Shown here: positions 1 to 46,063 of the stretch, piece after piece | How the letters are laid out: each line of letters starts with the position of its first letter | Position numbering within the stretch: position 1 is the stretch's first letter | IMG/VR virus record: IMGVR_UViG_3300050009_000007 | Location: 1 to 46,063 of that record | DNA: 46,063 nucleotides | DNA from: a virus | Reading direction: 5' to 3' (one strand) | Position numbers and translations under genes: made by a program | The notes under the pieces: model-generated | What the model was told of the DNA's origin: nothing | Database searches by the model: none | What the model saw: the letters and a program-made list of their open reading frames with translations, nothing else

Positions 1-628
1 TCGCCTCTTGTTTGCTGATAAAAAAGTGGATTCCGTTTGAGCATTCCACCAGCGGGTTAGGGTCGTAGGTGTCCGGCTTGACCGTCTCGCCAACCTTGTA
101 TTCCATGCCGTTATGCTGGCTTTGACCGTTGCCCTCAAGCACCACGGCAAATTCAGCGCGACATTTGCGGCCAATAAAACCGCCAACACGTTTTGCTTTC
201 GCCGGAATTTGCAGTTTGCAAATCACCCCATCACACAATTTCTTCCAGCCAACTAAATCACCGTCCGGCACAATCGTCCTGACAGCTAAAAGTTTTAGAA
301 GGTCTGCGCCTGACAGGTTTGCGCGTGACAGGTCTGCGCCTGACAGGTTTGCGCCTGACAGGTTTGCGCCTGACAGGTCTGCGCCTGACAGGTCTGCGCG
401 TGACAGGTTTGCGCCTGACAGGTCTGCGCCTGACAGGTCTGCGCCTGACAGGTTTGCGCCTGACAGGTCTGCGCCTGACAGGTTTGCGCCTGACAGGCTT
501 GCGCCTGACAGGTATGCGCCTGACAGGTATGCGCCTGACAGGTTTGCGCCTGCCTCGCCTATATTTTCTTCGTCGGATTCAAACAGGATTATTTCGCTAT
601 TCCAGCGTGAGACGATTTTAATTTTCAT
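1..628 (-). CDS. Pentapeptide-repeat protein, paralog A (N-terminal ~209 codons; the 3' end is cut by the window start and completed by 45726..45745 if the molecule is circular)
   Basis: ATG at 626-628 (rc). Translation is [27 protein letters not shown], then ~17 A(D/N/Y/S)LS(G/R) pentapeptides, then a C-terminal domain with KCRAEF and GIHFF motifs. Identical to 44914..45630 outside the repeat array. Confidence 0.8.
301..552. repeat. 15-bp tandem repeat array (16 full units plus a partial unit), the coding DNA of the paralog A pentapeptides
   Basis: Head-to-tail units ggtYtgcgcStgaca with no spacers. Variation is essentially limited to two nucleotide positions per unit. Confidence 0.95.
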
Positions 629-10681: not shown

Positions 10682-12175
10682 ATGGGGAATACAATCAAAA
10701 ACCACTATGAACACACCAACGCCTCTTTCAACGAGGTTTTCGCTGGTGAGTATAAAATGCCTCTCGTTGCCGCCCCTGAAACGGTTCTCGACATAGGCGC
10801 AAACGAGGGGGCTTTCACGGCTTGGGCATTGGAGGAATGGCCGAATTCTCAGATAAACGCATTCGAGCCAATTCCTGAAAATGCCGAGTATTTCAGGAAG
10901 AACATCAATGGTAGTCCCAATGTTCGATTCTTCGAGCGGGCAATCGCCCCGCTGAGTCCGGTCAGGATGTTCTATGGCAAGGGAAATAGCGGCCAATGCT
11001 CACTGTATCGAAACGGGGAACAGACTGAAAAATCTATTGAGGTCAATGCCGTCCCGTCCAAAGAACTTCCAAGCTGCGAATTCGTCAAGGTAGATGCCGA
11101 AGGGTCGGAACTGGACATCATCACCAATCTCGATCTATCCAAGACCAAGGCTGTTGCTTTTGAATATCACAGTTGGCCGGATGCGGAGCGTATTATTCAA
11201 CATCTGGAATCGAGCGGATTCGAGTCGGTTGAACACCGTGCGAGTTCAAGTCATCGCGGGGTGTTGAAGTTCGCCCGTCCTGACGCTGTGATTAAAAAGT
11301 CCAAGGGGACAAAGAGCGCCGTCAAGGTGTTCATCGGAGTGCCGAGCTTTTTCCATATTGACCCATATTTTCACCGCTGCTTGTTGATGACCTATGGATG
11401 GCTTTCGAGTCAGCCGGACGTTCCAGAGGCCATACATGGCGCTGTGGCGCACTCTTTCGGTGACAGCCCGCATGTCGGGCGGTCGCGCAACATGATTACC
11501 CGCAACTTTCTTGAAAGTGATTGCACCGACCTGCTGTTCATTGACAGCGACCTTGTTTTCAGCATTGACCATGTAAAGCGGATACTGTCGCATGACGAGG
11601 AAGTTGTCGGCGGGATGTATTTCAAGAAAAGCCAGGGAGCGCCAGAGCCGTGCCTGAACACAATCCGAAATCCGATTGTGAAGTCAAATGGCCTGAATCA
11701 GGTTGCCTACATCGGCACGGGGTTCATGAGAATCAAGCGGATTGTATTTGAGAAAATCATCGAACGATGGGGTGACGAGATTGCCTATTGCCCCGATGGA
11801 ACAACCGACATTCTGGAATACAACTTCTGGAATCTGGCAACCAATACGTTCGCGGAAGAAATCATCGCTGTTTATCCCGAACGGGTTGAGGCGCTGGTCA
11901 AAAAGTATGGCGTGACACCAGAGCGTGCCGCAAAAGCCATTCGCACCCGCTGGCTGTCGGAAGATTGGTGGTTCTGCCAGCGATGCAACGATTTGGGATT
12001 CAATGTTTGGGCAGACAGGCGCATTGCCCTGAAACATTCCGGCAACGTGCTTTACCCGCTCGAAACACAAGAGCAGGAGATTTTCGGAAAACCAATTATT
12101 TACGGGAGTAACCCTCCCGCCAGCGCCGATGCCATGCCGTCAGCTTCCCCACTGGCAGTTCCGGCGTCGGCGTGA
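10682..12175 (+). CDS. Fusion protein: FkbM-family SAM methyltransferase (N-terminal) plus GT-A-type glycosyltransferase (C-terminal)
   Basis: N-terminal half: VLDIGANEGAFTAWA...INAFEPIPENAEYFRKN...FVKVDAEGSELDI (FkbM/Methyltransf_21 pattern). C-terminal half: LLFIDSDLVF (DxD-like), VVGGMYFKK, GTGFMRIKRIVFEKI (GT-A-like). Confidence 0.8.
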   Translation: MGNTIKNHYEHTNASFNEVFAGEYKMPLVAAPETVLDIGANEGAFTAWALEEWPNSQINAFEPIPENAEYFRKNINGSPNVRFFERAIAPLSPVRMFYGKGNSGQCSLYRNGEQTEKSIEVNAVPSKELPSCEFVKVDAEGSELDIITNLDLSKTKAVAFEYHSWPDAERIIQHLESSGFESVEHRASSSHRGVLKFARPDAVIKKSKGTKSAVKVFIGVPSFFHIDPYFHRCLLMTYGWLSSQPDVPEAIHGAVAHSFGDSPHVGRSRNMITRNFLESDCTDLLFIDSDLVFSIDHVKRILSHDEEVVGGMYFKKSQGAPEPCLNTIRNPIVKSNGLNQVAYIGTGFMRIKRIVFEKIIERWGDEIAYCPDGTTDILEYNFWNLATNTFAEEIIAVYPERVEALVKKYGVTPERAAKAIRTRWLSEDWWFCQRCNDLGFNVWADRRIALKHSGNVLYPLETQEQEIFGKPIIYGSNPPASADAMPSASPLAVPASA

Positions 12176-19330: not shown

Positions 19331-22300
19331 ATGAAAACAACGATTATATTTCCAATGAGACGGATTTTAGCAACTGTGGGGATTCTGTTTTTGTCGCTGT
19401 CGGTATTTGCGACTGACCTTGAAATTAACCTCAACTGGTTCGGGGCATCTCCAGCGACCAACCGCAACGTCACCCTGCAACCAATGTCACCGTTTGTTGG
19501 CAACCTGACTTGGGGTGTATCCGATTCAAACGGGATATGTGTTTTCAGTAATCGTAACAGCGGGGTTTACGACGGTATCATAAAAGCACCACCGTCTCAA
19601 ATTCCATTTCAAGTCAAACTTCTTCCCGCAGATTCAGGACTGATTGACGCCACAAATCGGCTGACGCCGACTTACGGGGCAACTTATCCGGAAGGCGATA
19701 CGGCATGGTCAATCGCAACGAGCGATCAACGCTACCAGCTTTCCGGCACTACGGCCAGCAACACATTTTACCCGCTTTTCAGCAATCCGAGCAATTACGC
19801 CACGGCAAACACGGCATCAAATTACTCCAACGCCAGCACAAACGGATATGGCAATATCGTCAGCCTGAACACCAATCAGGTTGAATTAGCTGGTGCGGCG
19901 ACAAACGCCGCAAATCAGGCGACGAATAATACCGGCATCATTCGGTCAGATGTCTTTGGTGTGTCCACAAACCTGATTGTGACCAATCTTTTGAGCGACA
20001 TTGGGGCTTCAAATCAGTTTGCATTGAACGCCTCAACGAACAATTCAACTGCCGAGCGAAATGCCTTGGTTGCGACACAGGCGCTTACCCTCGCCTCCAT
20101 TGGAAACTCCAACACCGCTGCAATCACAACGGCCACAAACGATGCTTGGCAGTCTTTTACCAACGCCGCATTTTCGGGCGCGACCCCGTTCAACCTGTTT
20201 TCTGCGACGAATCTACCTTGGACGGGCATAACCGGCGTCGGAACTCTTGGCCAGTGGATGGGCATTGGGACAAACACGTTCTGGCAGGCATCAACCAACT
20301 GGACGGTTGCCTATGTGCTTGGACAGGGGTATGCAACAACGAATCAATTCAACGCCGGAACGAACTGGACTTACACGAATTTGCAGGCGCAGATTGCTTC
20401 CCTGAATTCGGGAACGTCCAATTCGATTGCCACCAATACGGGGACGCTGCTTGGTTCCACAGCCGCAGCCCTGACGAACGACATCGTTGCCACCAGCAAT
20501 CAGTTGGCGGCGGCGCAGTCGGCTGGAACGAACACAGTCCAGTATTTTGTCATCACTGGCTACACCACGCTGTCGTCTTTCTTGAGTGGCACAAATCAAA
20601 TTAACACAAATCTGTTGACAATCTCCACAAACCTTTATACGCAAGGGACAAATTATGCGAACACAAATTCAAGTTCGCTGGCGCTCGCACAAGGCACAGC
20701 GGGTTCAAATAACGCGGCGGGTCTGTTCATCTTCGCTACCAACTATTCCTCTACAAACTCGCTGGCGCTTGCCGCTGCCAACTCGAATCTTACGCGGGGC
20801 GTCAGCATCGTTGTAACAAATCTCAGCGGCTACATTCAGGCCATCGCATCCGGCTTGAAATTCTCAGTTGTCGTTTCCGGCGCATCGTCTGTTCCGAATG
20901 TGAATGGGACGAACGTATGGCAATCTTCAACGTCTTGGACGAACCTGAACGGGATTTCTTTCGTCACGAATGACGCTTCCGGGACAAGAATTTATTCGAG
21001 CGGTTCTCCATTTTACGGAGCGGTCATCGGTTATCCATCCGGGACAACAACGAACATCAATGGCTCGTCACCGGCCCCGACTCTTGCGCTCTTGGCGGTT
21101 GGTTTGGGGACGGCAATTCCTGCCGGGGTGGTTACGAACGGCCAGCCGTCAGTTACCTTTGGAAACGTCACGGCGTCCAATCTCAATGGCTCTTTGCCGG
21201 GAACAAACCTGACCGGAACGGTATTAATCCCGGTGGCGTTCCCAAATCTTGGAACTGGCGCGGTTACGGTGACAAACTCAGTTACCGGAGAATGGGATTT
21301 GGAAACAGTTAGTGGCGGAAGCACTGGAACAGCCACGAATCTGACGGGCAATGCAACCAATCAGGTGAATGGAATTGCTGGAACGATTTATACAAACAAT
21401 CCATTGGGCTATATCACAACAGCCAGCGGAACCGGCACGGCTACAAACCTTTCAGGCAATGCACTTAATCAGGTCACGAACATTGCTGCGGCTGTTGGCG
21501 GTTCTGGAGCGGTGACAAATTTTACGCTACCAGTTTCGATTGATGCAGGAGACACATCAACTAATACATTTGGCGGGGCAACTGTGATATTAGGGTTTAA
21601 TGTGCAAGAAGGAACATCATACGCCAACGGGAATCCAAGTCATGCAGAGAATAATTCATCGGCACTTGGCTCATTCGACCACAGCGAGGGGTATTATACT
21701 GTTGCAAGCAACATGGCAAGCCATGCGGAAGGTTATCAATCTTTCGCACTAGGATATGTCAGTCACGCTGCTGGAATTAAAGCTCAAGCAACCAATCTTT
21801 ATTCTTTCGTTTGGAACAGTGACCCGAACAATTATTTTGGAAGCTTGGTTCAACAATCATTTTCGGTTAATGCGTTGGGTGGTATCAGATTTGTAACTGG
21901 AGGTGCGGGAATGACTGTTGATGGGGTTCCAATTTCTGGCAGCACAAACACAACGACAACAAGTTCGTCTCAAAACACCTACACCAACGAGTTCATCACC
22001 GCTTCGACAACCAACATCTGGCTGGACGGAAACACGGCGATAAATTTTGACCTGACGTTCACTTCCACGGCCACAAATCACATCCAGATTGTTTACACAA
22101 ACGTCTCGATTCCTGTGAATCGGTGCGTCACCAGCGTTGTCCGGCTGCTTAACTACGGAACGAACATTTTGAATTTCACGTTCCCCGGCAACGTCATCGG
22201 GCTTGGCTCGACCGTGACGACTGATATTGCGACCAACTTCCCGTCAACGCTGTTGTCAAATCACTGGCATACCATCACTGTTCAGATTGGTCCAAGCTTC

Positions 22301-23320
22301 GCAACGGCGTTCGCCTATTCCGGCACGCTATCGAATCTCTTGGCATTTCCGACCACAACAAATGTAGCCGTGTTTCTGCCGGAGGATGAGACTACGCCGG
22401 TTAATTTGCTTGGCGGACTGAGCACGGCATCGAAGATTCGGAACATCGGGGGGGTGTTGTATGCGACTACGCTTTCGGCAGGCAAGGTGTTGGTGTCGTC
22501 AACCAACGGGACTTACTTTTACACCAATTATTATCCGTCCGATGGGGCGTATATTCCGATTGACATGGCTAAGGGAACAAACTCGAATGGCGGAGATGAG
22601 TGGTATCTGGTTGGTGGCGGGGGGCGTATTTGGACCTCAACCAATCCACCATCTGCAAACAACACGAATTGGACAAAGTATGTTGGCGGGAATACCGGGG
22701 CATTTACATGCTGCGTCGTAAATTCAAATAACTACTTTTTGGCTGGTGGATATAACATCATTGCCGCGTCAACCAATAACGGAGTTTCATTTAGCGAGCA
22801 AACTGTTCCTGTGACCGGCGGGAACATCTTCAACATTTCATGCAGCCCAACAAACTTCTGTTTAGCTGCCAGCCAAGCTGCCTATATTACCACAGACGGA
22901 ATAAACCTGACCACGGTAGCGACTGCTGGCGCAATCAGCAGTGGAGTGAACGCGGTTTCGTATTACGGCGAGGAAGGTTATGGAGCGGAATATCGAGTCG
23001 CAGGAATTGGGTGGGCAAATACGATATTCGGAACGAACACTTCTTTGGATGTATTCTACGACTTGAATGTTAATGGGACGGTTGTTACATCCCCGCTGTG
23101 TAATGATATTTGCGTTGTGAATGAGGCTGATACTCACACAGTTTCAAGTTGCTCTGCATACAACCGGGGATTTGTATCAATGCAAACCGCTCCATGGGGT
23201 CAAGCTGGCACAATGTTCATTTCGACGCTCCATAATTACCGTAGTGAACTGGACACCTACGAGCCTGTCTCTGTGGCATACAAAGACCACAAATGGTTCG
23301 TGGTCGCTCCCCATTTTTAA
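19331..23320 (+). CDS. Giant Asn/Thr/Ser-rich fibre- or adhesin-like protein (1329 aa) with an N-terminal signal-peptide-like sequence
   Basis: N-terminus MKTTIIFPMRRILATVGILFLSLSVFA|TDLE. Internal duplicated GTATNL(T/S)GNA(T/L)NQV(N/T). A YadA-head/Hep_Hag-like run SHAENNSSALGSFDHSEGYYTVASNMASHAEGYQSFALGYVSHAAG. C-terminal Asp-box-like motifs (STNNGVSFSEQ). Confidence 0.7.
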   Translation: MKTTIIFPMRRILATVGILFLSLSVFATDLEINLNWFGASPATNRNVTLQPMSPFVGNLTWGVSDSNGICVFSNRNSGVYDGIIKAPPSQIPFQVKLLPADSGLIDATNRLTPTYGATYPEGDTAWSIATSDQRYQLSGTTASNTFYPLFSNPSNYATANTASNYSNASTNGYGNIVSLNTNQVELAGAATNAANQATNNTGIIRSDVFGVSTNLIVTNLLSDIGASNQFALNASTNNSTAERNALVATQALTLASIGNSNTAAITTATNDAWQSFTNAAFSGATPFNLFSATNLPWTGITGVGTLGQWMGIGTNTFWQASTNWTVAYVLGQGYATTNQFNAGTNWTYTNLQAQIASLNSGTSNSIATNTGTLLGSTAAALTNDIVATSNQLAAAQSAGTNTVQYFVITGYTTLSSFLSGTNQINTNLLTISTNLYTQGTNYANTNSSSLALAQGTAGSNNAAGLFIFATNYSSTNSLALAAANSNLTRGVSIVVTNLSGYIQAIASGLKFSVVVSGASSVPNVNGTNVWQSSTSWTNLNGISFVTNDASGTRIYSSGSPFYGAVIGYPSGTTTNINGSSPAPTLALLAVGLGTAIPAGVVTNGQPSVTFGNVTASNLNGSLPGTNLTGTVLIPVAFPNLGTGAVTVTNSVTGEWDLETVSGGSTGTATNLTGNATNQVNGIAGTIYTNNPLGYITTASGTGTATNLSGNALNQVTNIAAAVGGSGAVTNFTLPVSIDAGDTSTNTFGGATVILGFNVQEGTSYANGNPSHAENNSSALGSFDHSEGYYTVASNMASHAEGYQSFALGYVSHAAGIKAQATNLYSFVWNSDPNNYFGSLVQQSFSVNALGGIRFVTGGAGMTVDGVPISGSTNTTTTSSSQNTYTNEFITASTTNIWLDGNTAINFDLTFTSTATNHIQIVYTNVSIPVNRCVTSVVRLLNYGTNILNFTFPGNVIGLGSTVTTDIATNFPSTLLSNHWHTITVQIGPSFATAFAYSGTLSNLLAFPTTTNVAVFLPEDETTPVNLLGGLSTASKIRNIGGVLYATTLSAGKVLVSSTNGTYFYTNYYPSDGAYIPIDMAKGTNSNGGDEWYLVGGGGRIWTSTNPPSANNTNWTKYVGGNTGAFTCCVVNSNNYFLAGGYNIIAASTNNGVSFSEQTVPVTGGNIFNISCSPTNFCLAASQAAYITTDGINLTTVATAGAISSGVNAVSYYGEEGYGAEYRVAGIGWANTIFGTNTSLDVFYDLNVNGTVVTSPLCNDICVVNEADTHTVSSCSAYNRGFVSMQTAPWGQAGTMFISTLHNYRSELDTYEPVSVAYKDHKWFVVAPHF

Positions 23321-23321
23321 T

Positions 23322-26300
23322 ATGAAAAACATCCTGCTTTCAATTTTACTTCTAGCTGGACTGACGGCTTATGCCGTGACGAATGCGCCATCGTTTAATT
23401 TCTCTCAAGGTTACGGTGGTGGAGGCGGTAGCGCAACGAATGCTATCACAAGCCTTGTTGCAACGAACGCCACGACTCCTAGCGTGAGTGCAAATGGACA
23501 GATTGGATATGTGCCGGTGCTGTTTGACCCCTTCGGCAGTTCTCTTGTAGCGACGCAGGGACTTGGCGGCGCGGCATTCCAGCCGACGAATACGTTTGAC
23601 CTTGCAGGGGCGGGAACGACGGCGGCGAATCAAGTAACAAATGGATTACGAATTGCCGCCTCAAATCTTCTGACTGGGGCCAATGGCGGGCAGGTTCCGC
23701 TTGGTGGATTATTTTCGTCTCGCGTTCCGGCTGATACAAACAGCGGGGCATACCTTTTAGTTGCAAATACCAACACTGGATTAAGGGATGCAACGACAGA
23801 TGCGCGGGCACTGACGAACTTACAGGCATCGGCGGTCGTAGGAACAGTCTCGACGGCAACAAGTGTTGCAAATCTTGGGAACTGGTTAAGCATTATTGGA
23901 ATAATAACCACGAATGCTAACTCAGTGTTCATTAATATGATTGCTGCGCCGGAGAATTACAATGGCACGTTCACCGGGCCTGTCTATGGGAATGCAACCA
24001 CGGCGCAGACGGCGAACTCAGCATTGTATAAGCCTGTTGAACTGCTTGGTGGCCAATTTTACCTTCCTGTTTTCACGGAAGATTTTAGTCCAACCAATTC
24101 AGCCAACATAACGACCGGCGGCACGATTCCATTCACTGATGGTTCAACGAATGTGTGGACACTCATTGTAGATAACGGAGGTTTTGCAGTTGTCACCAAC
24201 AATGAATTAATGATGTCGAACACCTATGATACCTTTCGGTCTGAGCTTGTGGGTGAAAAGCTGCCTGTGCTTGGAACGAATGCGGCGGGATGGGCCATTA
24301 AAGCGCACGTTTCATTAAATTCGTATGCTTATAATGGTATGGGGATTATGGAGGTAGGATTTACTACAACCCCGTCCACTCCGGGCTCTGCCACTGCTTA
24401 TCCGGTTGCAAGCACAGTTTTTAACGGTAACCCTCACACAGTCGGCATTGAATTTGGAGCAGGCAATCTAAAATACTTTTTTAACAATTCGGTAAAAAAC
24501 CATGACGGATTTGACCTGCTTTGTGTTCTAACCACGAACGGGTTTGTTTCATATATTCAGGGTGGTGTTGGTGATAATTTTAACGGCTACGAAGGCTCTG
24601 CTTCATGGTTTGAAGTTGGTTACTATACGAACGCGACGTGGGCTAATAGTATGATTTGTCCGGTGGTTTGTTATAGTGGCGGATTTGTGGGCGGCATGGG
24701 TTATGTGTCTCACATTGAAATTTATTCCAACTGGAATGCAACAGGAACATCGGGAGTGTTGCTGCACTCAATGCCTTTTGAGAATTACTACGTCAACGCT
24801 CCATATATCTGTCAGGACACAAACGGTGCTTTCTATGCAACCTTCGACCAAGGCAGCGGTGACGTGTCACTTGACCGGGTAGTTTATGCCGCTTACAGAA
24901 ATGGGTCAGGTCAATGGCAATATCCCGTTAGCGTTGTTGCTGGCACGAATGATGGGGCGACCGCCTATAATGCTGGGGCTGTGTGGACAAATCTCACCGG
25001 GGGTGTGGTGCTAACGTATAACAAATCTCTAAACAAGTTTACAAATTCTTCGGCGATTTACTATCGGACAAGTTTTTGGAACGGCTCATCTTTGGTGTTA
25101 GGGCCAGAAACGCTATTGAATGTTACCAATCTGCCAAACAATACATACTACGTTTCATACTCTCCGGCAATTCCCGCGCCAGACGGCACACTTATCATGC
25201 CCGTTGAGTGGATGAGCACCAATATCGCTTTCACTTCTTATCAATACACCAATTCAATCCTAAAGTCGTGGAACAATGGGGTCAGTTGGAGTATGGTTCC
25301 TTCGTCAGCAATCAGCACCAACACAGCATATTGGTGCGAAGGTGCTTTGGGTGTTCAGGTTGATGGTAAAGTAGCACAGTATTTTAGACTCAATGGTGGC
25401 GGTGGGAATGGCTTTGTTGGAGTCTCTTATTCATCTAACAGCGGGCTGACTTGGACGGCTCCTGTTGACACTACCATTCCAGAATGCGACCGAGTGTGTA
25501 TATCACCCATGCCGGGAGGCAATCTGTTGCTTGCCTTGTCGGGTGATGTTTTTAATGTTGCCGACCATCCGGTTGCCTATGTGGTCGGAAATAATTCCAC
25601 AGTCATCCAGAAGATTACTTTGTTTTCGTTCAACGATTCCGTCCCGTGGTACACACACAAATATACTTGGGTGGGGTGGTTCAACAACAAAATTTGCTAT
25701 ATGGTCACTCCGCAAGTTGAAGATGGTATTTGGTATGGTGAGAAATCACTGGACGGGGCTATTGAAAATCAGTGGAGCGCCAACCGCCAGCGCGACCAAA
25801 AATTAAATGCGGCCTTACACGAAAACATTCCGTTGTTGACGAATATGACTGCGGCACAGGTTATAGCTGCTGGTGGACTGACCAATGCCGTCACGATTTT
25901 GAACAGCACGAATGGATATTACACTTGGGTCACGAATGCTGGCGGTCAAATGACAGGAACTTGGGTTCCAACAAACACACCAGCAGCGGCATTAACTGGT
26001 GTTCTGCCTATAGGATTATTAACTTCATCCGGCACAAACTTACCCGGTGGAGTATTGGTTACGGACGGCGCGGGGAATAGGATTTACACCAACAACCTGA
26101 ACGGGGTATCCATCAACGGCGCGTCACAAACAAACCCTGTTGTATATCAGTTCGCGCAGACCAACATAATGTTCATCGGCACCAATGCGTTAGGTGTTCC
26201 CTTCACAAACTTCTGGGTGCAAGGGACGGGGACGAGTCTTTATACCGTGTGGCAGTTGGACAATGTGGGATATACTTCACTCTACACGGTAGGAACTAAT

Positions 26301-26720
26301 GGGCAATACATGTTTAATCAACAGGTTAATAGTGGCACAGTGAGTGCCGGCAGTGTATCTCTAAGCCCAATCTTCCGAGGCGCCAGCAGCGCCTCGGCCT
26401 TCACATTAGGTGCATCCACCACACCCAACATCTTCGTCCTGGCCACAAATCTAAACAGCGGTGCGTTGGTAAACAATTTCACAAACGGAATCACCAGCTT
26501 TTCAACAAACAGCATCACGGTTGGTTCAACTGGATTAACAAACACATTGGGAAAGACCATCGTTGTCAATTTCACTGTTGGGACTGGCTGCTCGCTTTTC
26601 AACAATCAAGGCATTGCTGAATTTTCATCCGTAGCCGTTGGTGCTGGAACGCAATGGCGCGTTCAGGCCAATGGATGGATAACCGGCACCGCCATAACCG
26701 CAACAGCAGATGCTTGGTAA
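23322..26720 (+). CDS. Second giant fibre-like protein (1132 aa) with a signal peptide and BNR/Asp-box-like motifs
   Basis: ATG 23322 lies within ORF 23121..26720. N-terminus MKNILLSILLLAGLTAYA|VTNAPS. SWNNGVSWSMV and SSNSGLTWTAPV resemble S-x-D-x-G-x-T-W repeats of sialidase-type beta-propellers. Confidence 0.7.
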   Translation: MKNILLSILLLAGLTAYAVTNAPSFNFSQGYGGGGGSATNAITSLVATNATTPSVSANGQIGYVPVLFDPFGSSLVATQGLGGAAFQPTNTFDLAGAGTTAANQVTNGLRIAASNLLTGANGGQVPLGGLFSSRVPADTNSGAYLLVANTNTGLRDATTDARALTNLQASAVVGTVSTATSVANLGNWLSIIGIITTNANSVFINMIAAPENYNGTFTGPVYGNATTAQTANSALYKPVELLGGQFYLPVFTEDFSPTNSANITTGGTIPFTDGSTNVWTLIVDNGGFAVVTNNELMMSNTYDTFRSELVGEKLPVLGTNAAGWAIKAHVSLNSYAYNGMGIMEVGFTTTPSTPGSATAYPVASTVFNGNPHTVGIEFGAGNLKYFFNNSVKNHDGFDLLCVLTTNGFVSYIQGGVGDNFNGYEGSASWFEVGYYTNATWANSMICPVVCYSGGFVGGMGYVSHIEIYSNWNATGTSGVLLHSMPFENYYVNAPYICQDTNGAFYATFDQGSGDVSLDRVVYAAYRNGSGQWQYPVSVVAGTNDGATAYNAGAVWTNLTGGVVLTYNKSLNKFTNSSAIYYRTSFWNGSSLVLGPETLLNVTNLPNNTYYVSYSPAIPAPDGTLIMPVEWMSTNIAFTSYQYTNSILKSWNNGVSWSMVPSSAISTNTAYWCEGALGVQVDGKVAQYFRLNGGGGNGFVGVSYSSNSGLTWTAPVDTTIPECDRVCISPMPGGNLLLALSGDVFNVADHPVAYVVGNNSTVIQKITLFSFNDSVPWYTHKYTWVGWFNNKICYMVTPQVEDGIWYGEKSLDGAIENQWSANRQRDQKLNAALHENIPLLTNMTAAQVIAAGGLTNAVTILNSTNGYYTWVTNAGGQMTGTWVPTNTPAAALTGVLPIGLLTSSGTNLPGGVLVTDGAGNRIYTNNLNGVSINGASQTNPVVYQFAQTNIMFIGTNALGVPFTNFWVQGTGTSLYTVWQLDNVGYTSLYTVGTNGQYMFNQQVNSGTVSAGSVSLSPIFRGASSASAFTLGASTTPNIFVLATNLNSGALVNNFTNGITSFSTNSITVGSTGLTNTLGKTIVVNFTVGTGCSLFNNQGIAEFSSVAVGAGTQWRVQANGWITGTAITATADAW

Positions 26721-31226: not shown

Positions 31227-32111
31227 TTATTTTTCGTTTGGCGTCGGGGGTTGTGGTTCGTCGTCTGGTTCGTTCGTCCAAATCAGCATGGATTGACAGT
31301 CTTGGCGCATAACATCTGAACGGTTTTCCTGCATCCACCATTTCCAAAAATCTTCCCCGGTTTTGAATCTTGCATGAAATCTTGGATGCCCCTTTTTTGT
31401 CGGAACGTCTTTCCATTTTTTCCAATTTGAGATTATGGCTTTTTTCCAGTTTCTTTCAAATGCTGGCCATCGTTTAAACTCCCGTATTCGGCTGGTGTTG
31501 TTTAGGGGGCAACCAACGCATCCCAATCGCGTCCATCCTTGGTCGTATAACTCACAGTATGGGATTTTATACTCTCGGATAAAACCCCAAAGCTGTTCAT
31601 CTGACCAGAACACAATCGGACAAACAATCCTTTCAGCATTGCGATCATCAATCGTAACTTCGCGCCACCGCCTTGCTCGCTTTGCTCCTTCTGCCGCCCG
31701 AACGCCCATTATTTTAGTTCTTCCCCGACCGCCGTTTTCCTTGTATTCCTCGCAGCACCATCGAACCATTCTTGTTGGGGGTGGAGAATTCCTATTTTCT
31801 ACACGCTTCATCATGTTCCCGTTTGGTGGTAGCTGCCAAGCAACGTCTTTATGCTCCCGTTTAATGAAATGAATCAATTCTGGCGGGTCAATGGTTGTGG
31901 ACATATACCACGCCTCAAATCTCACTCCAGAAATTTGAGCCAGCTTTTTAATTACACAGGAATCCTTTCCCCCGGAGAATGCTAAATAATATCCACCAGA
32001 AGGCTCGTTCTCTTTTAATAATTTAACAGCGCGAGCAATTAACTGTTCGGAATTAAAAGACGCAACCATCTCTTGGTCGGTTGGCTCAAAACCGTTTAGT
32101 GTGTTTTGCAT
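31227..32111 (-). CDS. PAPS-reductase-family (PP-loop ATP pyrophosphatase) protein
   Basis: YLAFSGGKDS PP-loop. IMGVRAAEGAKRARR fits G.R..ES..R. C-terminal CVGCPL cysteines and a Trp/Lys-rich tail. Confidence 0.75.
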   Translation of the reverse strand: MQNTLNGFEPTDQEMVASFNSEQLIARAVKLLKENEPSGGYYLAFSGGKDSCVIKKLAQISGVRFEAWYMSTTIDPPELIHFIKREHKDVAWQLPPNGNMMKRVENRNSPPPTRMVRWCCEEYKENGGRGRTKIMGVRAAEGAKRARRWREVTIDDRNAERIVCPIVFWSDEQLWGFIREYKIPYCELYDQGWTRLGCVGCPLNNTSRIREFKRWPAFERNWKKAIISNWKKWKDVPTKKGHPRFHARFKTGEDFWKWWMQENRSDVMRQDCQSMLIWTNEPDDEPQPPTPNEK

Positions 32112-35791: not shown

Positions 35792-36395
35792 AAGTATGAG
35801 CGTTTATTTTCCACGTTGAAAGAGCGTGCGTCCACGACTTCATCGGATTCTTTCCGACCCGCCAGCCATTGCTGGTGTAATAGTTAAAAAACTTCTCGGC
35901 CTCGATGTCGCTGAGTCCTATTTTGGCAGCTTGGAGTTTGATGGCCGGAAGCTCAGGAACAATAAATCTAGAAACAGATACAGAAGCAGAAGCAGAAGCA
36001 GAAGCAGAGGGTGCATCCTGCTTTGCATCTACAATATGTAAAGCATTTGCATGTGGTTTGCTCCATCTTGCTTTAGCAGCATCCCGCCTTACGTCGCTGA
36101 TATTACAGTCCCTTAGGCGTTTTCGGCAGGAAAGGATTATGCAGTCGTTTTGCATGCCAACATTTGCCACTTTGAATGTTTTTAGCTGTTCCAAAGCAAG
36201 CTGCATTTGCGGAACTCGGCAGACGCAGAGCGACGCCAACTGCTCAATCGTTCCTGAAATGCTTCCTGTTTGCTGTAACATCATGGTGTTAATCGCTTCA
36301 AACCAAATGCCCCGCGTGGCGGCTTCGCAAAGCCTCAATCCCGGCTCGCTGGCCCAGTTCGTCGGATACCACTTTTCCCAAGGGAGTTCAGGCAT
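35670..36395 (-). CDS. Replication organiser (DUF1376/DnaD-like)
   Basis: MPELPWEKWYPTNWASEPGLRLCEAATRGIWFEAINTMM resembles the DUF1376 N-terminus. The C-terminus FFNYYTSNGWRVGKNPMKSWTHALSTW resembles replisome-organiser tails. It has an SASASASASVSVS linker. An alternative GTG start lies at 36470. Confidence 0.5.
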   Translation of the reverse strand: MPELPWEKWYPTNWASEPGLRLCEAATRGIWFEAINTMMLQQTGSISGTIEQLASLCVCRVPQMQLALEQLKTFKVANVGMQNDCIILSCRKRLRDCNISDVRRDAAKARWSKPHANALHIVDAKQDAPSASASASASVSVSRFIVPELPAIKLQAAKIGLSDIEAEKFFNYYTSNGWRVGKNPMKSWTHALSTWKINAHTYGNTNAKNGVQRIDRSIGTANEGIASRYKDFGKVVKPPNP

Positions 36396-36571: not shown

Positions 36572-36796
36572 CTATTTTCCCTCATCCATAAGGCTCCCAC
36601 TTTTCTCCCCGCCGTCTTGAAACCCGATTCGGTTCAACCGCTGGCGCAGCTTGACTTCGTGCTTAACCTTGCCCACGGCGTGTTCTAGCGCAATCGCAGC
36701 CCCAATCTGCATCGCCTCTTGAACCAGCACGGCGGGACGAATTCCAGACTTTCGACTGAAATCTAAAGCGGCTGATTTTATGCGGGATTCAATCAT
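36572..36796 (-). CDS. Hypothetical protein (74 aa) sharing its first 24 aa with 38094..38471
   Basis: The N-terminus MIESRIKSAALDFSRKSGIRPAVL lies inside the 114-bp exact repeat. Confidence 0.55.
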   Translation of the reverse strand: MIESRIKSAALDFSRKSGIRPAVLVQEAMQIGAAIALEHAVGKVKHEVKLRQRLNRIGFQDGGEKSGSLMDEGK

Positions 36797-36841
36797 GGCT
36801 GTTCATTTCAATATACGACTGGCGGTTGTATAATCACTGTT
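36728..36841. repeat. 114-bp exact direct repeat, copy 1 (spans the gene junction methyltransferase / 74-aa gene)
   Basis: Base-for-base identical to 38403..38516 by eye. It covers the last 12 sense codons plus the stop codon, a 6-nt spacer and the first 23 codons. Confidence 0.9.
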
Positions 36842-37573
36842 AGCCTGCTTGACCTGGGCGAGCAGGTAGCGCCCTATGTATTCGGTATATGCCGGCGGAA
36901 TTGCCTGACACATTTCGTCTCGGTTCATCCAGTCTATTTTCATCGCCGCCGCCGCTTCCTTTCGGTAGAGCATCCGGTGCTTTCCCGTATGACCGCCGTG
37001 GCCATATACGCCGACCGCCGGGCCGCGATGGTTGCACGCCGGTTGCGGCAGCGAAAAAGATGTCTCGAATATCCGGTGGCGGCGCAGGAAGCCGCGATCC
37101 ACACCAAGCCCGAACATTGACCCACACAGCACGACGCCATGATTTCCGAACAGGTCGGAGTATTCTTGGAGCGGAGCGCCTTCGACATTTTCGATGACGT
37201 AGGGATTGCCGATGCTTTTGAGCAGTTCGCGCACCGGCTCTATCAGCATCGGGTATTCTTTTCCGGGGTGCATTGCCCGCAGGTTTGAGTAGCCCTGGCA
37301 CGGCGGGCTTGCGTGGATTGCGTCGTATTCGTCACCGTGGGCAGCGCAGTATTCCAGCGCATCGGCCATGATGAACGTGTGCGGGTTATTCTTTTGTGGC
37401 TTGATGTCCACGCCGGTCACGTCGAAGCCAGCGCGCCGGTATCCTTCACCCGCTCCGCCGGCGCAGCAGAACAAATCCAGCAGACGCGGTGTAACAAGAC
37501 GCTGGAGAGAATCGCACTTGGCCTCTGCGGTTGCGACGCTCTCAGGTGTTTGGATGTCTGCGGCTTCGATCAT
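36803..37573 (-). CDS. DNA (cytosine-5) methyltransferase
   Basis: Motif I DLFCCAGGAG, motif IV ASPPCQGYS, motif VI YVIENVEG, C-terminal AIPPAYTEYIG. Confidence 0.9.
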   Translation of the reverse strand: MIEAADIQTPESVATAEAKCDSLQRLVTPRLLDLFCCAGGAGEGYRRAGFDVTGVDIKPQKNNPHTFIMADALEYCAAHGDEYDAIHASPPCQGYSNLRAMHPGKEYPMLIEPVRELLKSIGNPYVIENVEGAPLQEYSDLFGNHGVVLCGSMFGLGVDRGFLRRHRIFETSFSLPQPACNHRGPAVGVYGHGGHTGKHRMLYRKEAAAAMKIDWMNRDEMCQAIPPAYTEYIGRYLLAQVKQANSDYTTASRILK

Positions 37574-38097: not shown

Positions 38098-38471
38098 AAA
38101 TCTTTTGGTGTTCGTGAGTCGCCGGTCGCGGGCGGCTCATCGGGGACGTTGGGCTGCTTGTAACCCTTCACTCGTGCATTCAAGAGCCACATTGCTAGTT
38201 TGCGCCTCCATTCAGGCAGGCATGGATTCACGCACATCAGCAGTTCAGCAGCTTCGTGCCAGCGTTCGATTGGAGCGACGATGACATGACCGCCGACGTT
38301 CATGCCGATTCCGCCGCCTTCAGTCACATGGATGCTTGGCGCGTAGTAGTCGCCGGGCTTCTTGCGCCAGATTTCTTTGTCGGTGTTCGAGCAGCAGCCC
38401 AACACGGCGGGACGAATTCCAGACTTTCGACTGAAATCTAAAGCGGCTGATTTTATGCGGGATTCAATCAT
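38094..38471 (-). CDS. Hypothetical protein (125 aa) sharing its first 24 aa with 36572..36796
   Basis: The N-terminus lies inside repeat copy 2. The remainder is unrelated to the 74-aa protein. Confidence 0.55.
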   Translation of the reverse strand: MIESRIKSAALDFSRKSGIRPAVLGCCSNTDKEIWRKKPGDYYAPSIHVTEGGGIGMNVGGHVIVAPIERWHEAAELLMCVNPCLPEWRRKLAMWLLNARVKGYKQPNVPDEPPATGDSRTPKDL

Positions 38472-38516
38472 GGCTGTTCATTTCAATATACGACTGGCGG
38501 TTGTATAATCACTGTT
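38403..38516. repeat. 114-bp exact direct repeat, copy 2
   Basis: Identical to 36728..36841. Flanking bases continue with scattered mismatches for about 10 nt. Confidence 0.9.
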
Positions 38517-39041
38517 GGCCTGATTAGCCTTTAGCAGTTCGCACACTGTTTCTGCGATGACGAGCGACGCTTGTTTGCCCGTGCGCGAGTATTTGATGAA
38601 GTCTGGCGCGAATATCTCAACCAAGACATCGCCCATGATGATTTTGCGGACACTCCACATTGTTATTTTGTCCGTGACTTTTTCAAACAGTCCGATGGCA
38701 GCGTGGAGGTGTTCAGAATATCCAGCGCAGACCCGCGATATTTCACACGTCACGACGGGCCGATAGTCGGCGCTCGTTGTCGTGTCGGGCAGTTTGAATT
38801 GCCGGCAGATATCATGCTTCCAGTTTTTCCACATGTCCGGCCACAGCGATTTATCAGATGGGTCATTGAGTCTGTCCGCGAGTTGTTGCCGTTCAGCGCG
38901 GGCGTGTGGCGAGTCGTATGGCGTCCCAAAGAAGTCGAGCTGAACTCCATCGAAGCAGAACACGATGAAGTCGGCAGGTGTTTCTCCGAGCAGTTCGCAA
39001 AGCTCAAAGTCGAGCGGCTTACTTTTGATTGTCGTTTTCAT
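38478..39041 (-). CDS. Hypothetical protein (187 aa) with the C-terminal tail QANSDYTTASRILK shared with the methyltransferase
   Basis: ATG 39039-39041; the ORF-track start at 39062 is a GTG. No recognised motif. Confidence 0.55.
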   Translation of the reverse strand: MKTTIKSKPLDFELCELLGETPADFIVFCFDGVQLDFFGTPYDSPHARAERQQLADRLNDPSDKSLWPDMWKNWKHDICRQFKLPDTTTSADYRPVVTCEISRVCAGYSEHLHAAIGLFEKVTDKITMWSVRKIIMGDVLVEIFAPDFIKYSRTGKQASLVIAETVCELLKANQANSDYTTASRILK

Positions 39042-41347: not shown

Positions 41348-42301
41348 TTACGGCGTCAAATCGAATCCCGCTTCGGGTGTGGGTTGTTGGTCATATTCCA
41401 GCTTGTCCTCAAGAGCAGAAAATTCCATCCAAGGCTCTGCTTGAACCAAGCTAAATTCGTCAGCAGGATCGTAGCCTGACCACTCGCCGGTTTTTAGGCA
41501 GCGGGCGTATTTTTCCAAAGCGTAGGTGAAACTTTGACGGCCAATGTCGAGAAAATCCTGCCCAAGCAATCGGCGTCCGGTTTCAAACGGGGCGTAATTT
41601 TCCTGCAAAATGAAAATCCACTCACACCTATCTTCGCCAGTTGCAGCCGTGTAAAGCGCAAGGTCAAACGCGGCCTGGATGTGATAACCAGCCGTGAAGC
41701 ACCAGCGGGAGAATGGTCGCTGTCCAGCATTGCGCGTGGACTTCAAATCGCCAAGGGACTTTTGAAACTCAGAATCCTTTCGAGGAACGAAGTCAATCAG
41801 GCATTGGACGGGGATAATCAGGCCGGTCTTGGCGTCCAGCCATTCCCCGGAAACGTGAACCTGCTTGTCGCTGGCTTTGTGGTAGGCTGCAATCGTGTCA
41901 TCAGACAGCAAACGCTTGACGGCGTTTTCAGCGTTTGTCAGTTCAGTGCCGGAAACAATGTTGAATCCCTCATGGTCGGCCAGCCATTCCTTGCATACGT
42001 TTGAATTGCCGTTCCAAGGTTTTTCTTCGCCGGTCTTGGAATCGCGGTAGGTTGCCGGCTTGATGGCGTAGCGCGTCTTAAATTGCTCTGGCGTTAGCAA
42101 AAGACAGTCAAGCAGGTTGCCAAACTGTTTTGCCTCCGAATCAGGCGAAACATATCCCGCCTTATATCTACTTGGGCATTCCGAGAAAGATTTAAGGCTT
42201 GATGGGGACATGCGAAACTCAGGGGTGCATCGCTCTGCTTCTTGGTGGTGATACGCCTCAGAATTTATTCCAACTCCAATAATTTTCGCGTTTTTGAACA
42301 T
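41348..42301 (-). CDS. PD-(D/E)XK exonuclease (RecE C-terminal / DUF3799-like)
   Basis: ATG 42299-42301 is preceded by GGAGG. ...CLIDFVP....LGDLKST fits D...(D/E)xK. The partner ERF gene lies upstream. Confidence 0.6.
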   Translation of the reverse strand: MFKNAKIIGVGINSEAYHHQEAERCTPEFRMSPSSLKSFSECPSRYKAGYVSPDSEAKQFGNLLDCLLLTPEQFKTRYAIKPATYRDSKTGEEKPWNGNSNVCKEWLADHEGFNIVSGTELTNAENAVKRLLSDDTIAAYHKASDKQVHVSGEWLDAKTGLIIPVQCLIDFVPRKDSEFQKSLGDLKSTRNAGQRPFSRWCFTAGYHIQAAFDLALYTAATGEDRCEWIFILQENYAPFETGRRLLGQDFLDIGRQSFTYALEKYARCLKTGEWSGYDPADEFSLVQAEPWMEFSALEDKLEYDQQPTPEAGFDLTP

Positions 42302-42302
42302 A

Positions 42303-42851
42303 TTAAATATGCCTCCACGTTTTTCCTGTGACAATGTTCCAAATACTTTGAAAACAAACCCCGTATCGCTTTGCAAGTTGGTGGCAGTTATTTCCGAAAG
42401 GCTTGGGTGAATAGATTTTTCGTATTTTCAAAACGTCTTTCGTTTTCAGTTTTGAAGCCCCGCAGCCTTCTCCCCGCGCCGTTATTCTTCTGCCTCTGTC
42501 GTCCATGTCTTTGGAGTTTGTCTTTGCGGTTCCTTTGTAAAGGTGGTCTGGATTCCAGCAGGCGCGATTATCACAGGTGTGGCAAATCATTGATTCCGAA
42601 TTTACTTCGCCAACAAAAAGAAAATAGGACAGCCGATGAATGCGCCACTGACGCCCACCGCGAAACGCCTTCCATTCCATAACCCCATATCCGTCTTTAT
42701 CTCGACACCCATCCCAAACAAAGCATCCAGCCGATTCGTGCGAACAATCTGCCAAAGAGTTGGCTTTCTGATAAGGGAAAACGAAATGACAAGAACGTGA
42801 TGTCACGTCATGTAGCATTCTGCGTATTTGCCATTGGTTCATACTTTTCAT
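42303..42851 (-). CDS. HNH endonuclease (free-standing, homing-type)
   Basis: DKDGYGVMEW....RIHRLSYFLFVGEV....ICHTCDNRACWNPDHLYKGTAKTN is a typical HNH (H-N-H with CxxC...C) pattern. The C-terminal part is HTH-like. Confidence 0.8.
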   Translation of the reverse strand: MKSMNQWQIRRMLHDVTSRSCHFVFPYQKANSLADCSHESAGCFVWDGCRDKDGYGVMEWKAFRGGRQWRIHRLSYFLFVGEVNSESMICHTCDNRACWNPDHLYKGTAKTNSKDMDDRGRRITARGEGCGASKLKTKDVLKIRKIYSPKPFGNNCHQLAKRYGVCFQSIWNIVTGKTWRHI

Positions 42852-43642
42852 TGGTGCGCCTCAACTTTCTGGCGGAACTTTTCAAGCTCTCCCTTGGTGG
42901 TCGGAATGATGGAGTCGGGCAAATCATCCATTGAGCCATCCGGCATAATGACAGATTCATCAATCGCCCATTGCAAAATCTTCTGGTGAATGTCCTTGGT
43001 GACTTCAAAGAAGCGATTGCGGATTTCAGTTGTGACAACGCGGCCAGTGGCCGACGCCTTGGGCGGGTTTCCTCCGTCCTTATCCTCGCCAGCAAACACT
43101 AGCCCGTAAGCGTTTCCCAATACGCGACGATTTGAGAACGTCAGAGCGGCGGCATATTGCTGTGTGTCGCTCATTATCGCCGTGCGTGTCCCAAGCGGGA
43201 ACTTTCCAACGCTGGTCTTGGAATGTCCAAGGGTATGCGTAATCGTCACGCTGGTTATTACCCACCCCGGCTGGCTGGCGACATCCTGGTTGTAGGTGTG
43301 GGTGAAGCCATGTTCGCGCTCGATTGGCCGGATAACTTCCTCAATTTTCTCAATCGGGGCGTATTTGTAAGCGGTCGCTCCCGAACGGTCAGGAACACCC
43401 CTGCCCTTGATGATGACCGGACATTGCGCCTGAAACGCTGACATGGCTTCGTCAAACGCTTGCGCGGCGGCTATGGCTTGATCTTCGCGCAGCATGGCGC
43501 GGAGTTCCTTCACAACCTCAACGGCGGCTTTCGAGTCAACCGCTTTGGTAATCAGTTCTTCGATATTGATGGTTGGCAATATAGGCCGCGCCAATGCTCC
43601 CGGTTTACGTTCCACAACCACCATTTCATTTTGTTTGTTCAT
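42848..43642 (-). CDS. ERF-family single-strand annealing protein
   Basis: YKYAPIEKIEEVIRPIEREHGF and MSDTQQYAAALTFSNRRVLGNAYGLVFAGEDKDG align by eye with P22 Erf (YKYRSCEDILEGVKPLL...; ...SSYARKYCLNGLFGIDDAKDAD). Confidence 0.8.
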   Translation of the reverse strand: MNKQNEMVVVERKPGALARPILPTINIEELITKAVDSKAAVEVVKELRAMLREDQAIAAAQAFDEAMSAFQAQCPVIIKGRGVPDRSGATAYKYAPIEKIEEVIRPIEREHGFTHTYNQDVASQPGWVITSVTITHTLGHSKTSVGKFPLGTRTAIMSDTQQYAAALTFSNRRVLGNAYGLVFAGEDKDGGNPPKASATGRVVTTEIRNRFFEVTKDIHQKILQWAIDESVIMPDGSMDDLPDSIIPTTKGELEKFRQKVEAHQ

Positions 43643-44913: not shown

Positions 44914-45630
44914 TTAGTTGTAGTCAATCGCCTCTTGTTTGCTGATAAAAAAGTGGATTCCGTTTGAGCATTCCACCAGCGGGTTAGGGTCGTAGGTGTC
45001 CGGCTTGACCGTCTCGCCAACCTTGTATTCCATGCCGTTATGCTGGCTTTGACCGTTGCCCTCAAGCACCACGGCAAATTCAGCGCGACATTTGCGGCCA
45101 ATAAAACCGCCAACACGTTTTGCTTTCGCCGGAATTTGCAGTTTGCAAATCACCCCATCACACAATTTCTTCCAGCCAACTAAATCACCGTCCGGCACAA
45201 TCGTCCTGACAGCTAAAAGTTTTAGAAGGTCTGCGCCTGACAGGTATGCGCGTGACAGGTCTGCGCCTGACAGGTCTGCGCGTGACAGGTCTGCGCCTGA
45301 CAGGTTTGCGCCTGACAGGTTTGCGCCTGACAGGTCTGCGCCTGACAGGTCTGCGCGTGACAGGTTTGCGCCTGACAGGTCTGCGCCTGACAGGTTTGCG
45401 CCTGACAGGTCTGCGCGTGACAGGTCTGCGCCTGACAGGTCTGCGCCTGACAGGTTTGCGCCTGACAGGTCTGCGCCTGACAGGTTTGCGCCTGACAGGC
45501 TTGCGCCTGACAGGTATGCGCCTGACAGGTCTGCGCCTGACAGGTTTGCGCCTGCCTCGCCTATATTTTCTTCGTCGGATTCAAACAGGATTATTTCGCT
45601 ATTCCAGCGTGAGACGATTTTAATTTTCAT
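44914..45630 (-). CDS. Pentapeptide-repeat protein, paralog B (238 aa)
   Basis: About 22 consecutive A(D/N/Y/S)LS(G/R) pentapeptides flanked by a 27-aa N-terminal segment and a ~100-aa C-terminal domain ([24 protein letters not shown]). Confidence 0.9.
45228..45554. repeat. 15-bp tandem repeat array (21 full units plus a partial unit), the coding DNA of the paralog B pentapeptides
   Basis: Same unit as 301..552 but five units longer and with a different order of unit variants. Confidence 0.95.
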
Positions 45631-45725
45631 AATTTTGCGTTGAGTTGGGGGTTATTAGTCATTTTCGCCGGTCATGTCGCGTTCAAAACCGGCGCGCCGT
45701 CGTTCGCGTTTGGTTTTTCATAATT

Positions 45726-46063
45726 TTAGTTGTAGTTGTAGTCATTCGCCTCTTGTTTGCTGATAAAAAAGTGGATTCCGTTTGAGCATTCCACCAGCGG
45801 GTTAGGGTCGTAGGTGTCCGGCTTGACCGTCTCGCCAACCTTGTATTCCATGCCGTTATGCTGGCTTTGACCGTTGCCCTCAAGCACCACGGCAAATTCA
45901 GCGCGACATTTGCGGCCAATAAAACCGCCAACACGTTTTGCTTTCGCCGGAATTTGCAGTTTGCAAATCACCCCATCACACAATTTCTTCCAGCCAACTA
46001 AATCACCGTCCGGCACAATCGTCCTGACAGCTAAAAGTTTTAGAAGGTCTGCGCCTGACAGGT
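45726..46063 (-). CDS. Pentapeptide-repeat protein paralog A, C-terminal part (runs off the window end; continues at 319..628 if circular; 215 aa in total)
   Basis: The stop is at 45726-45728 (rc). The C-terminus ...[17 protein letters not shown] differs from paralog B (...QEAIDYN). 45746..46063 is identical to 1..318. Confidence 0.8.
   Translation of the reverse strand, partial: LSGADLLKLLAVRTIVPDGDLVGWKKLCDGVICKLQIPAKAKRVGGFIGRKCRAEFAVVLEGNGQSQHNGMEYKVGETVKPDTYDPNPLVECSNGIHFFISKQEANDYNYN
45746..46063. repeat. 318-bp terminal overlap with 1..318 (circular closure or terminal redundancy)
   Basis: The sequence is identical by eye over the full 318 bp. Confidence 0.85.

Follow-up and report, generated by a model that had tools for sequence, protein, structure and literature searches.

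The window analysed here is the viral record IMGVR_UViG_3300050009_000007 (positions 1 to 46,063, i.e. the whole stretch of 46,063 nucleotides), which carries two pentapeptide-repeat genes, gene A and gene B, each with a repeat region (array A and array B) built from 15-bp DNA units and each ending in a C-terminal DUF5758 domain. The locus raises the question of how such units are kept alike at the DNA level, whether whole units are gained and lost, and why the few differences left between them change the protein. We consider it likely that the arrays code for a beta-helix under concerted evolution, with gain and loss of units and with surface-diversifying selection, in a tandem pair of early phage genes. 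A preliminary description of this DNA, made from the sequence alone, had proposed that the units have expanded and contracted recently and probably still do so. This proposal is supported by two sets of near-identical genomes that differ in unit number (L002-L004 against L005, and L091 against L092), by the comparison of array A with array B and by the unit numbers found in relatives.

Repeat units of the two arrays

Both arrays were recovered by Tandem Repeats Finder with a period of 15 bp and without indels, array A at 300-552 (16.9 copies, 92% matches, score 422) and array B at 45227-45554 (21.9 copies, 92% matches, score 551). When the arrays were cut in register, all the full units of both fitted one consensus, GGTNTGCGCSTGACA. 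The genes are therefore built from near-perfect 15-bp repeats as first described, and the counts of 16 (A) and 21 (B) full units were reproduced, with each array also ending in a degenerate extra unit. Among the full units only position 4 (T, C or A) and position 10 (C or G) are variable, apart from a single C at position 3 in each array. The minus strand offers the sole sensible reading frame, in which the unit is read as GCA-NAC-CTG-TCA-SGC and codes for A-(N/D/Y/S)-L-S-(G/R). Each difference between full units is nonsynonymous, in agreement with the earlier observation that substitutions are nearly confined to two nucleotides per unit and change only the D/N/Y/S and G/R residues. The one synonymous difference scored in the window arrays belongs to a terminal unit that merges into the flank. 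The window alone provides four variant types, none of them synonymous, which is too few for statistical significance.

Codon identity in the window arrays, taken over codons that share an amino acid, is 0.97-0.98. By comparison, 15 other genes of the same phage use the codons of Ala, Leu, Ser and Gly almost evenly, with a homozygosity of 0.18-0.27. The purity of the arrays is therefore not a matter of codon bias.

The order of unit types was found to differ between the two arrays, as had been noted before, and the arrays have an exact stretch of 119 bp in common. When A and B are aligned unit by unit, no fewer than three indels (of 2, 1 and 2 units) are needed along with two substituted units, so that the difference of five units is the net outcome of several events. 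The earlier statement that the arrays are exactly five units apart stands as a net figure, but it does not describe a single event. The flanks of the two arrays match at 100% identity, both in 300 bp of C-terminal coding sequence and in 124 bp of N-terminal coding sequence and leader, and the array events between A and B thus happened while 424 bp of flanking sequence stayed unchanged. With near-identical units arranged head to tail and in frame, the window arrays have the build of an intragenic variable-number repeat.

Gain and loss of repeat units

A comparison of array lengths among related phages, suggested in the preliminary description as a check, revealed indels of 90 bp and 45 bp on near-identical backgrounds. 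The first set consists of alleles of a single phage, with 10 units in three samples (L002, L003 and L004) and 4 units in a fourth sample (L005). The flanks of these alleles are 99.9-100% identical over about 10 kb, and the sole structural difference is a clean deletion of 90 bp (6 units) bounded by a 30-bp repeat. The second set, L091 and L092, was obtained with different assemblers and shows three mismatches in 10.5 kb together with one indel of 45 bp (3 units); protein P0055 represents a third allele of this gene. The repeats that bound the indels of the isogenic pairs (30 bp or less) are far shorter than the assembly k of 141. A possible third isogenic pair, L078 and L081 with 15 and 18 units, was dropped, the assemblies being full of small indels. 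L002 (at 156-545), L003, L004 and L005 also have an internal repeat family of segments 83-97% identical to each other, which is unrelated to the pentapeptide array.

The closest relatives of the window gene have 4, 17, 19, 21 and 26 units. The nearest of them, L086 (Ga0182017_10055133), matches copy A at 97% DNA identity and has its 17 units arranged in another order. Arrays of 21 and 26 units belong to more distant relatives that use the same unit codons, and just 4 units were seen in a protein with 96% identity in the C-terminal domain. Variable-number loci are recognised by unit differences between near-identical genomes, and such differences were observed both among the relatives and between the paralogs A and B. 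The L086 gene is single-copy within its 2.6-kb contig, where positions 1-430, judged by eye, seem to hold the 3' end of a transposase-type gene (…GFWSQVKRSLDGTHHSVSPKYLQGYINEFAWRYSHR) that precedes the gene in place of a second copy.

Cluster E mycobacteriophages provide a degenerate counterpart. The gp59 of phage 244, annotated as 'pentapeptide repeat protein', has the same pentapeptide region followed by a C-terminal DUF5758 domain (37.5% identity there) and occupies the same early operon position beside the repressor. It is, however, degenerate at both the protein and the DNA level (codon identity 0.50, with 8 synonymous and 24 nonsynonymous differences), whereas the window genes have near-perfect units in variable number. 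The contrast that had been drawn between pure arrays and degenerate pentapeptide genes is thus found within the family itself. All 152 cluster E records align across the full 846-bp gene, and no 15-bp indel was found among the 60 homologues listed (846 bp, with two of 840 bp; 95.5-100% identity). Since this degenerate array shows no change in unit number, instability in units of the repeat length tracks purity at the DNA level.

Codon homogeneity across the family

A total of 83 arrays from viral contigs, having between 3 and 56 units (median 20), were compared with their own consensus. Codons that stand for one amino acid within an array have a median identity of 0.98, and the value is exactly 1.00 in most arrays. 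We counted 1,970 nonsynonymous and 251 synonymous differences, and about two thirds of the latter (166) come from just seven degenerate arrays. The 65 arrays found in bacterial genomes have a median codon identity of 1.0. Pure arrays occur in isolate genomes of Luteimonas, Rhodanobacter, Shinella, Bradyrhizobium, Rhizobium and Pseudoxanthomonas, in a metagenome-assembled genome (MAG) labelled as a nanopore ('ont') bin (L101), and in two cultured phages, namely the Rhizobium phage RHph_TM3_3_14B (19 units, codon identity 1.0, no synonymous against 38 nonsynonymous differences) and the T7-like Ralstonia phage BOESR1 (27 units). As it is shared by isolates, a nanopore-labelled MAG and cultured phages, the codon pattern is not an artefact of metagenomes.

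The unit consensus varies by lineage despite the same peptide. It is GCA RAC CTG TCA GGC in the window, L006 and L007, GCG GAC TTG AGC GGG in L002, and GCC AAC CTG TGC GGT in L001. Diversity at third codon positions is accordingly 0.08 within arrays and 0.53 between array consensuses, while positions 1 and 2 of the three outward codons (i-1, i+1 and i+2) show a within-array diversity of 0.31. Over 147 arrays, 185 synonymous and 1,124 nonsynonymous distinct variant codon types were found. The synonymous share of 14% is to be compared with the 28% expected without selection (p = 2e-32), and 78 arrays are without any synonymous variant. Judged from the sequences, the family bears the mark of units that evolve in concert and of selection that retains surface replacements.

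Predicted structure of the repeat proteins

Protein B was found to belong to Pfam PF00805 (Pentapeptide; 152 bits, cut-off 20.2) and, at its C-terminus, to PF19062 (DUF5758; 62.1 bits, cut-off 26.9). The conserved motifs of the latter domain are WKK, RKCRAE and ECxxGIHFF, with the invariant columns taken from 50 sequences. Its invariant residues include Cys, Cys, His and Glu. The AlphaFold model of protein B consists of an N-terminal hairpin with a short helix, a beta-helix, a linker helix of low confidence and a confident C-terminal domain. Residues 29-129 of the model have one beta bridge for every five residues and a predicted confidence (pLDDT) of mostly about 87-92, which is lower at the C-terminal end of the array. 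The modelled repeat part superposes on the pentapeptide crystal structure 2j8k with 0.8 A over 106 columns, and on the strength of the model the window protein is predicted to be a right-handed quadrilateral beta-helix. Residues 1 and 3 of each pentapeptide point inward in this fold and residues 2, 4 and 5 point outward (PMC10886550), so the variable D/N/Y/S at position 2 and G/R at position 5 are expected to be exposed. The claim that the variable positions face outward therefore agrees with the model, with the superposition on 2j8k and with the published orientation. The inward residues are strongly constrained (Ala 96%, Leu 100%).

Unit numbers of the family are spread evenly over the four remainders modulo 4 (18/16/16/15). 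We rejected a face-specific surface pattern, as units with R and with Y fall on different helix faces. The net charge is -7 over the 22 units of array B (-0.32 per unit) and -4 over the 17 units of array A; the family median is -0.11 per unit, with 23% of the arrays below -0.3. A match to the NCBIfam family 'Alr5209' was above its cut-off only by way of repeat matches and was not taken as membership.

The DUF5758 domain modelled alone has a pLDDT of 89. Its model matches the C-termini of predicted repeat proteins of phages and giant viruses in BFVD (E 1e-6 to 1e-4, TM 0.7-0.8), the N-terminal parts of which are HEAT, MORN, pentapeptide or RING scaffolds. A search with the gene B protein against PDB sequences matched the pentapeptide part alone and not DUF5758. 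Across viruses, the domain seems to be used as a module that is joined to repeat scaffolds. At least four proteins with this fold were observed in the Acidovorax phage ACP17, and in giant viruses (Klosneuvirinae, mimiviruses and a pithovirus) it is fused to MORN, HEAT, RING and pentapeptide scaffolds.

Alternative explanations

Several observations weigh against concerted evolution with unit gain and loss and surface selection. The duplication or the array lengths might result from an assembler walking through the repeat, for example by merging two strain variants. The window borders coincide with the 318-bp exact repeat at the ends of the record, the arrays have an exact stretch of 119 bp in common and lie between exact repeats of 300 bp and 124 bp, all of which are too long for short reads to span, and many related contigs break inside the array. 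The array lengths of the window are those of the assembled sequence, and the isogenic pairs were assembled from short-read metagenomes, a procedure in which repeats can be collapsed. We nevertheless regard such an artefact as unlikely, given that the A/B junction (45679-45745) is unique and holds a remnant of the downstream gene, that the C-terminal ends of A and B differ, that the 17-unit array closest to copy A stands on an independent contig (L086), and that pure arrays occur in isolates, the nanopore-labelled MAG and cultured phages. Such an artefact remains the chief reservation about the duplication itself and about the exact array lengths. A different objection accepts the arrays as real and explains them by neutral slippage only, the arrays being very young, changes elsewhere having been purged, and surface diversity not being selected. 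The strong constraint on the inward Ala and Leu is consistent with this, the four variant types of the window do not reach significance by themselves, and the test for a synonymous deficit counts variant types and not independent events, with related arrays sharing ancestry. If slippage acted alone, synonymous third positions should vary at least as freely as tolerated replacements, yet they are the least variable (0.08 against 0.31), and synonymous variant types amount to only half of the no-selection expectation, which makes purely neutral slippage improbable in our view.

The repeats could instead act as DNA, in the form of origin iterons, packaging sites or protein-binding sites, with the reading frame being secondary. 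Some phage origins are repeat arrays inside genes, and the arrays of the window are located at the boundary of the early leftward operon and the packaging genes. Against this, relatives have the peptide pattern in common but not the DNA sequence of the unit, the frame is open through the array in the loci examined (with one possible frameshift, in the indel-rich assembly of L078), the variation follows codon structure and the predicted protein folds with high confidence; a DNA function is thus very improbable. The same holds for a diversity-generating retroelement, or a similar dedicated mutator, as the source of the variation in NNC codons, which we judge to be highly unlikely. The variable codons are indeed of the NNC type with changes in the first two positions, and the replacements of N by D, Y and S are changes at the adenines of AAC, such adenine changes being known from the targets of these retroelements. 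The G/R variation, however, is a G-to-C change and does not involve adenine, no reverse transcriptase domain was found in the 20 larger (mid-sized) open reading frames (ORFs) scanned, small ORFs lying outside the scan, no template repeat was found, and the pattern spans many unrelated phage backbones. With no reverse transcriptase among these 20 ORFs and with changes at bases other than adenine, the arrays were not classed as retroelement targets. As to function, the window protein had no match among the PADLOC defence models, no paper mentioning DUF5758 was found in the literature, and the DUF5758 model had no analogue among PDB folds (best E 0.8, TM 0.25 or less). A role as a DNA mimic in anti-restriction, of the Ocr/ArdA type, is conceivable, but the only mildly acidic arrays lend it little support.

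Proposed mechanism and role

Under concerted evolution, the 15-bp units would be kept near-identical by frequent in-register slippage, unequal recombination or gene conversion, and the same homogenising process would add or remove whole units, so that the length of the rod would change in steps of one pentapeptide, a quarter of a helix turn. The differences that persist against homogenisation would be nonsynonymous changes in the codons of outward residues only, and such persisting surface replacements point to selection for a varied protein surface. The indels may arise by replication slippage or by annealing of units, to which the Erf and exonuclease pair of the phage would be well suited. 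Erf is a candidate catalyst of recombination between units.

The protein may serve as an early host-interaction factor in which the rod is a tunable spacer or a binding surface that carries DUF5758. An early role in host interaction is suggested by the operon position of the gene. Genes A and B open the leftward early operon of the window, the family gene is directly downstream of the repressor in phage 244 and in RHph_TM3_3_14B, it is located near a repressor-type Peptidase_S24 gene in L091, and in BOESR1 it belongs to the early region on the left, with about 5 kb separating it from that end of the record. Since unit number modulo 4 is uniform, charged and aromatic units are not on one face and the linker is flexible, the data suggest that bulk properties, i.e. 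rod length and the mix of surface residues, matter over one precise interface.

A more speculative proposal, to which we give a rather low probability, is that of a solenoid display in which recombination of units and selection reshuffle the rod length and a combinatorial surface, tracking host targets, with DUF5758 as the common effector. The surface code would be made up of D/N/Y/S and of G, R, S, D and others on the fixed beta-helix. If this were true, an early phage protein could follow the changes of variable host targets, for instance defence proteins, and the system would be a recombination-based functional analogue of retroelement-driven or leucine-rich-repeat (LRR) type diversification. 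Many anti-defence and host-takeover factors come from phage early genes of unknown function. Our literature searches gave no paper in which pentapeptide proteins of phages are described as acting against defence or as having variable repeats. Each element by itself is known, whether pentapeptide proteins, DUF5758 or variable repeats within genes, but neither the variable-repeat nature of this phage family nor the codon signature of the pentapeptide-DUF5758 family was described in the papers that we found. The repeat region behaves like a built-in variator of length and surface, and it comes with experimental handles, namely the codon signature, natural alleles that differ by whole units and the cluster E arrays as a natural control.

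Comparison with known repeat systems

A parallel in variable array length is the Legionella protein DotG/IcmE, in which the length of the pentapeptide array differs between species and strains, and which is placed by the authors among the components with high intragenic recombination (PMC6761968). DotG resembles the window family in having a length-variable pentapeptide array and differs in being a component of a bacterial type IVB secretion system without DUF5758. We found no report of homogeneity at the codon level, or of solely nonsynonymous variation, in DotG.

The topoisomerase-protecting proteins Qnr, MfpA, AlbG and McbG have the same right-handed quadrilateral beta-helix fold. The window protein scores far below the NCBIfam equivalog cut-offs for Qnr (49.6 against 240) and MfpA (39.8 against 360). 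In comparison with these proteins, the window proteins are without loop insertions and without a C-terminal dimerisation helix of that type, and they have an additional DUF5758 domain and a weakly acidic surface.

Bacterial variable-number or contingency loci are similar in that in-frame units gained or lost by slippage or recombination alter the length of the protein. The repeat tract of Escherichia coli tolA gains and loses in-frame repeats with a change in protein length (PMC3477136), and in-frame gain and loss of repeats is also the behaviour of Helicobacter pylori CagY as cited in PMC6761968. The window locus differs from them in that it belongs to a phage early gene, that its unit is one structural repeat of a solenoid, and that its family pairs homogenisation with a family-wide excess of surface replacements. 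The targets of diversity-generating retroelements likewise consist of a fixed scaffold with diversified exposed residues in NNC-type codons, whereas the diversity in the window would come from ordinary mutation and recombination among units, and its changes are not restricted to adenine.

Gene pair and genome context

Bases 1-318 of the window are an exact copy of 45746-46063. The window thus carries a terminal redundancy of 318 bp, and the genome that it represents, circular or terminally redundant, is 45,745 bp long. Genes A and B are a tandem duplication with A directly upstream of B on the minus strand (Table 1). Their 3' ends differ by one substitution and by a slip of the 6-bp repeat TAGTTG. 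This hexamer occurs 2.7 times at 45727-45742, which explains the …NYNYN tail of gene A against …YN in gene B and represents a second small slippage event. The remnant at the junction, ATGAAAAAC…, resembles ATGATTATGGAAAAC…, the start of the gene that follows B, and the junction sequence 45679-45745 is unique in the window genome. By its sequence, such a remnant would be what is expected at a true duplication breakpoint.

Table 1. Coordinates of the gene pair, its arrays and related features in the window
Feature	Position	Strand	Description
Array A	301..552	-	16 full 15-bp units and a degenerate 17th
Array B	45228..45554	-	21 full 15-bp units and a degenerate 22nd; encodes A(N/D/Y/S)LS(G/R)
Gene B	44914..45630	-	238 aa; N-terminal cap, 22 pentapeptides, linker helix and DUF5758 domain
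Gene B, N-terminal cap	45555..45630	-	Predicted beta hairpin and short helix
Gene B, linker and DUF5758 C-terminal domain	44917..45225	-	Pfam match at residues 147-234
Gene A, first 209 codons	1..628	-	Start codon is the complement of 626-628; crosses the genome junction; 215 aa in total
Gene A, last codons and stop	45726..45745	-	…EANDYNYN*; gene B ends in …EAIDYN*
124-bp block	45555..45678	-	N-terminal coding sequence and 48-bp leader; 100% identical to 553-676 upstream of array A
A/B junction	45679..45725	-	Remnant of the start of the downstream gene (ATGAAAAAC…), then sequence unique in the genome
Terminal redundancy	45746..46063	.	Second occurrence of 1-318 and no further gene copy; the divergence of copies A and B begins exactly where the window stops
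Erf-like single-strand annealing protein	42848..43642	-	PHROG 155, E 8e-17; same leftward operon as A and B
Exonuclease VIII-like gene	41348..42376	-	PHROG 412, E 8e-48; likely partner of Erf (inferred role)

The window is the genome of a tailed phage, with large terminase, portal and major head protein genes on the plus strand and with genes for a sliding-clamp-like protein, an Erf-type annealing protein and an exonuclease VIII-like protein on the minus strand. No close DNA relative was found among GenBank phages and the terminase is less than 30% identical to that of any deposited phage. An IMG/VR search by exact DNA did not recover the contig of the window, and the exact sequence of protein B was absent from the protein-position index. 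No tRNA genes were found in the window, and promoter and terminator scans around both gene copies gave results at or below shuffle expectation.

Other features of the genome include a 132-nt direct repeat in the minus-strand early region (36724-36855 and 38399-38530, 96% identical and 1,675 bp apart), which could mark the ends of paralogous genes or a recombination substrate, and a tandem repeat of the hexamer AGAAGC (6.5 copies at 35970-36008, 90% matches), which would be in frame if coding and could be a small variable tract. The minus strand also carries a gene with a PAPS-reductase domain at 31227-32111 (Pfam PF01507, E 4e-21). Among the structural genes on the plus strand, positions 10682-12175 code for a protein of 497 aa with a methyltransferase PHROG match at residues 14-184 and a match to a PHROG of unknown function at residues 276-455. 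Two long plus-strand ORFs of 1,329 and 1,199 aa (19331-23320 and 23121-26720), with an overlap of 200 bp and without a PHROG match, may code for tail or fibre proteins or be a frameshifted pair.

Distribution of the family

A first protein search with the C-terminal domain returned 255 proteins, and further searches with it located no fewer than 566 viral loci in IMG/VR and 173 loci from many phyla in bacterial and archaeal genomes. In a library of 1.84 billion proteins, 2,964 clusters at 50% identity match DUF5758 (E<=1e-3), and the match reaches the C-terminus in nearly all of the 150 clusters listed. This is a large, fast-evolving and unstudied family, with about 3,000 such clusters, members in phages of many bacterial phyla and its C-terminal fold in giant viruses. 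The neighbours of family members include Erf-like genes in 11 loci, SSB genes in 9 and YqaJ-type exonuclease genes in 8.

Family members are often truncated in catalogues because the arrays break short-read assemblies, and the family is under-represented in metagenomic catalogues. Contigs that end inside or beside an array are L009, L011, L018, L028, L041, L059, L060, L066, L068, L073, L077, L079 and L090. Tandem paralogs were also observed at two other loci, L032 with two copies (one of 456 aa with 56 units, the other of 299 aa with 35) and L170, a Pirellulales MAG, with three divergent copies. The arrays of both these loci are degenerate (codon identity 0.29-0.70), unlike those of the window pair.

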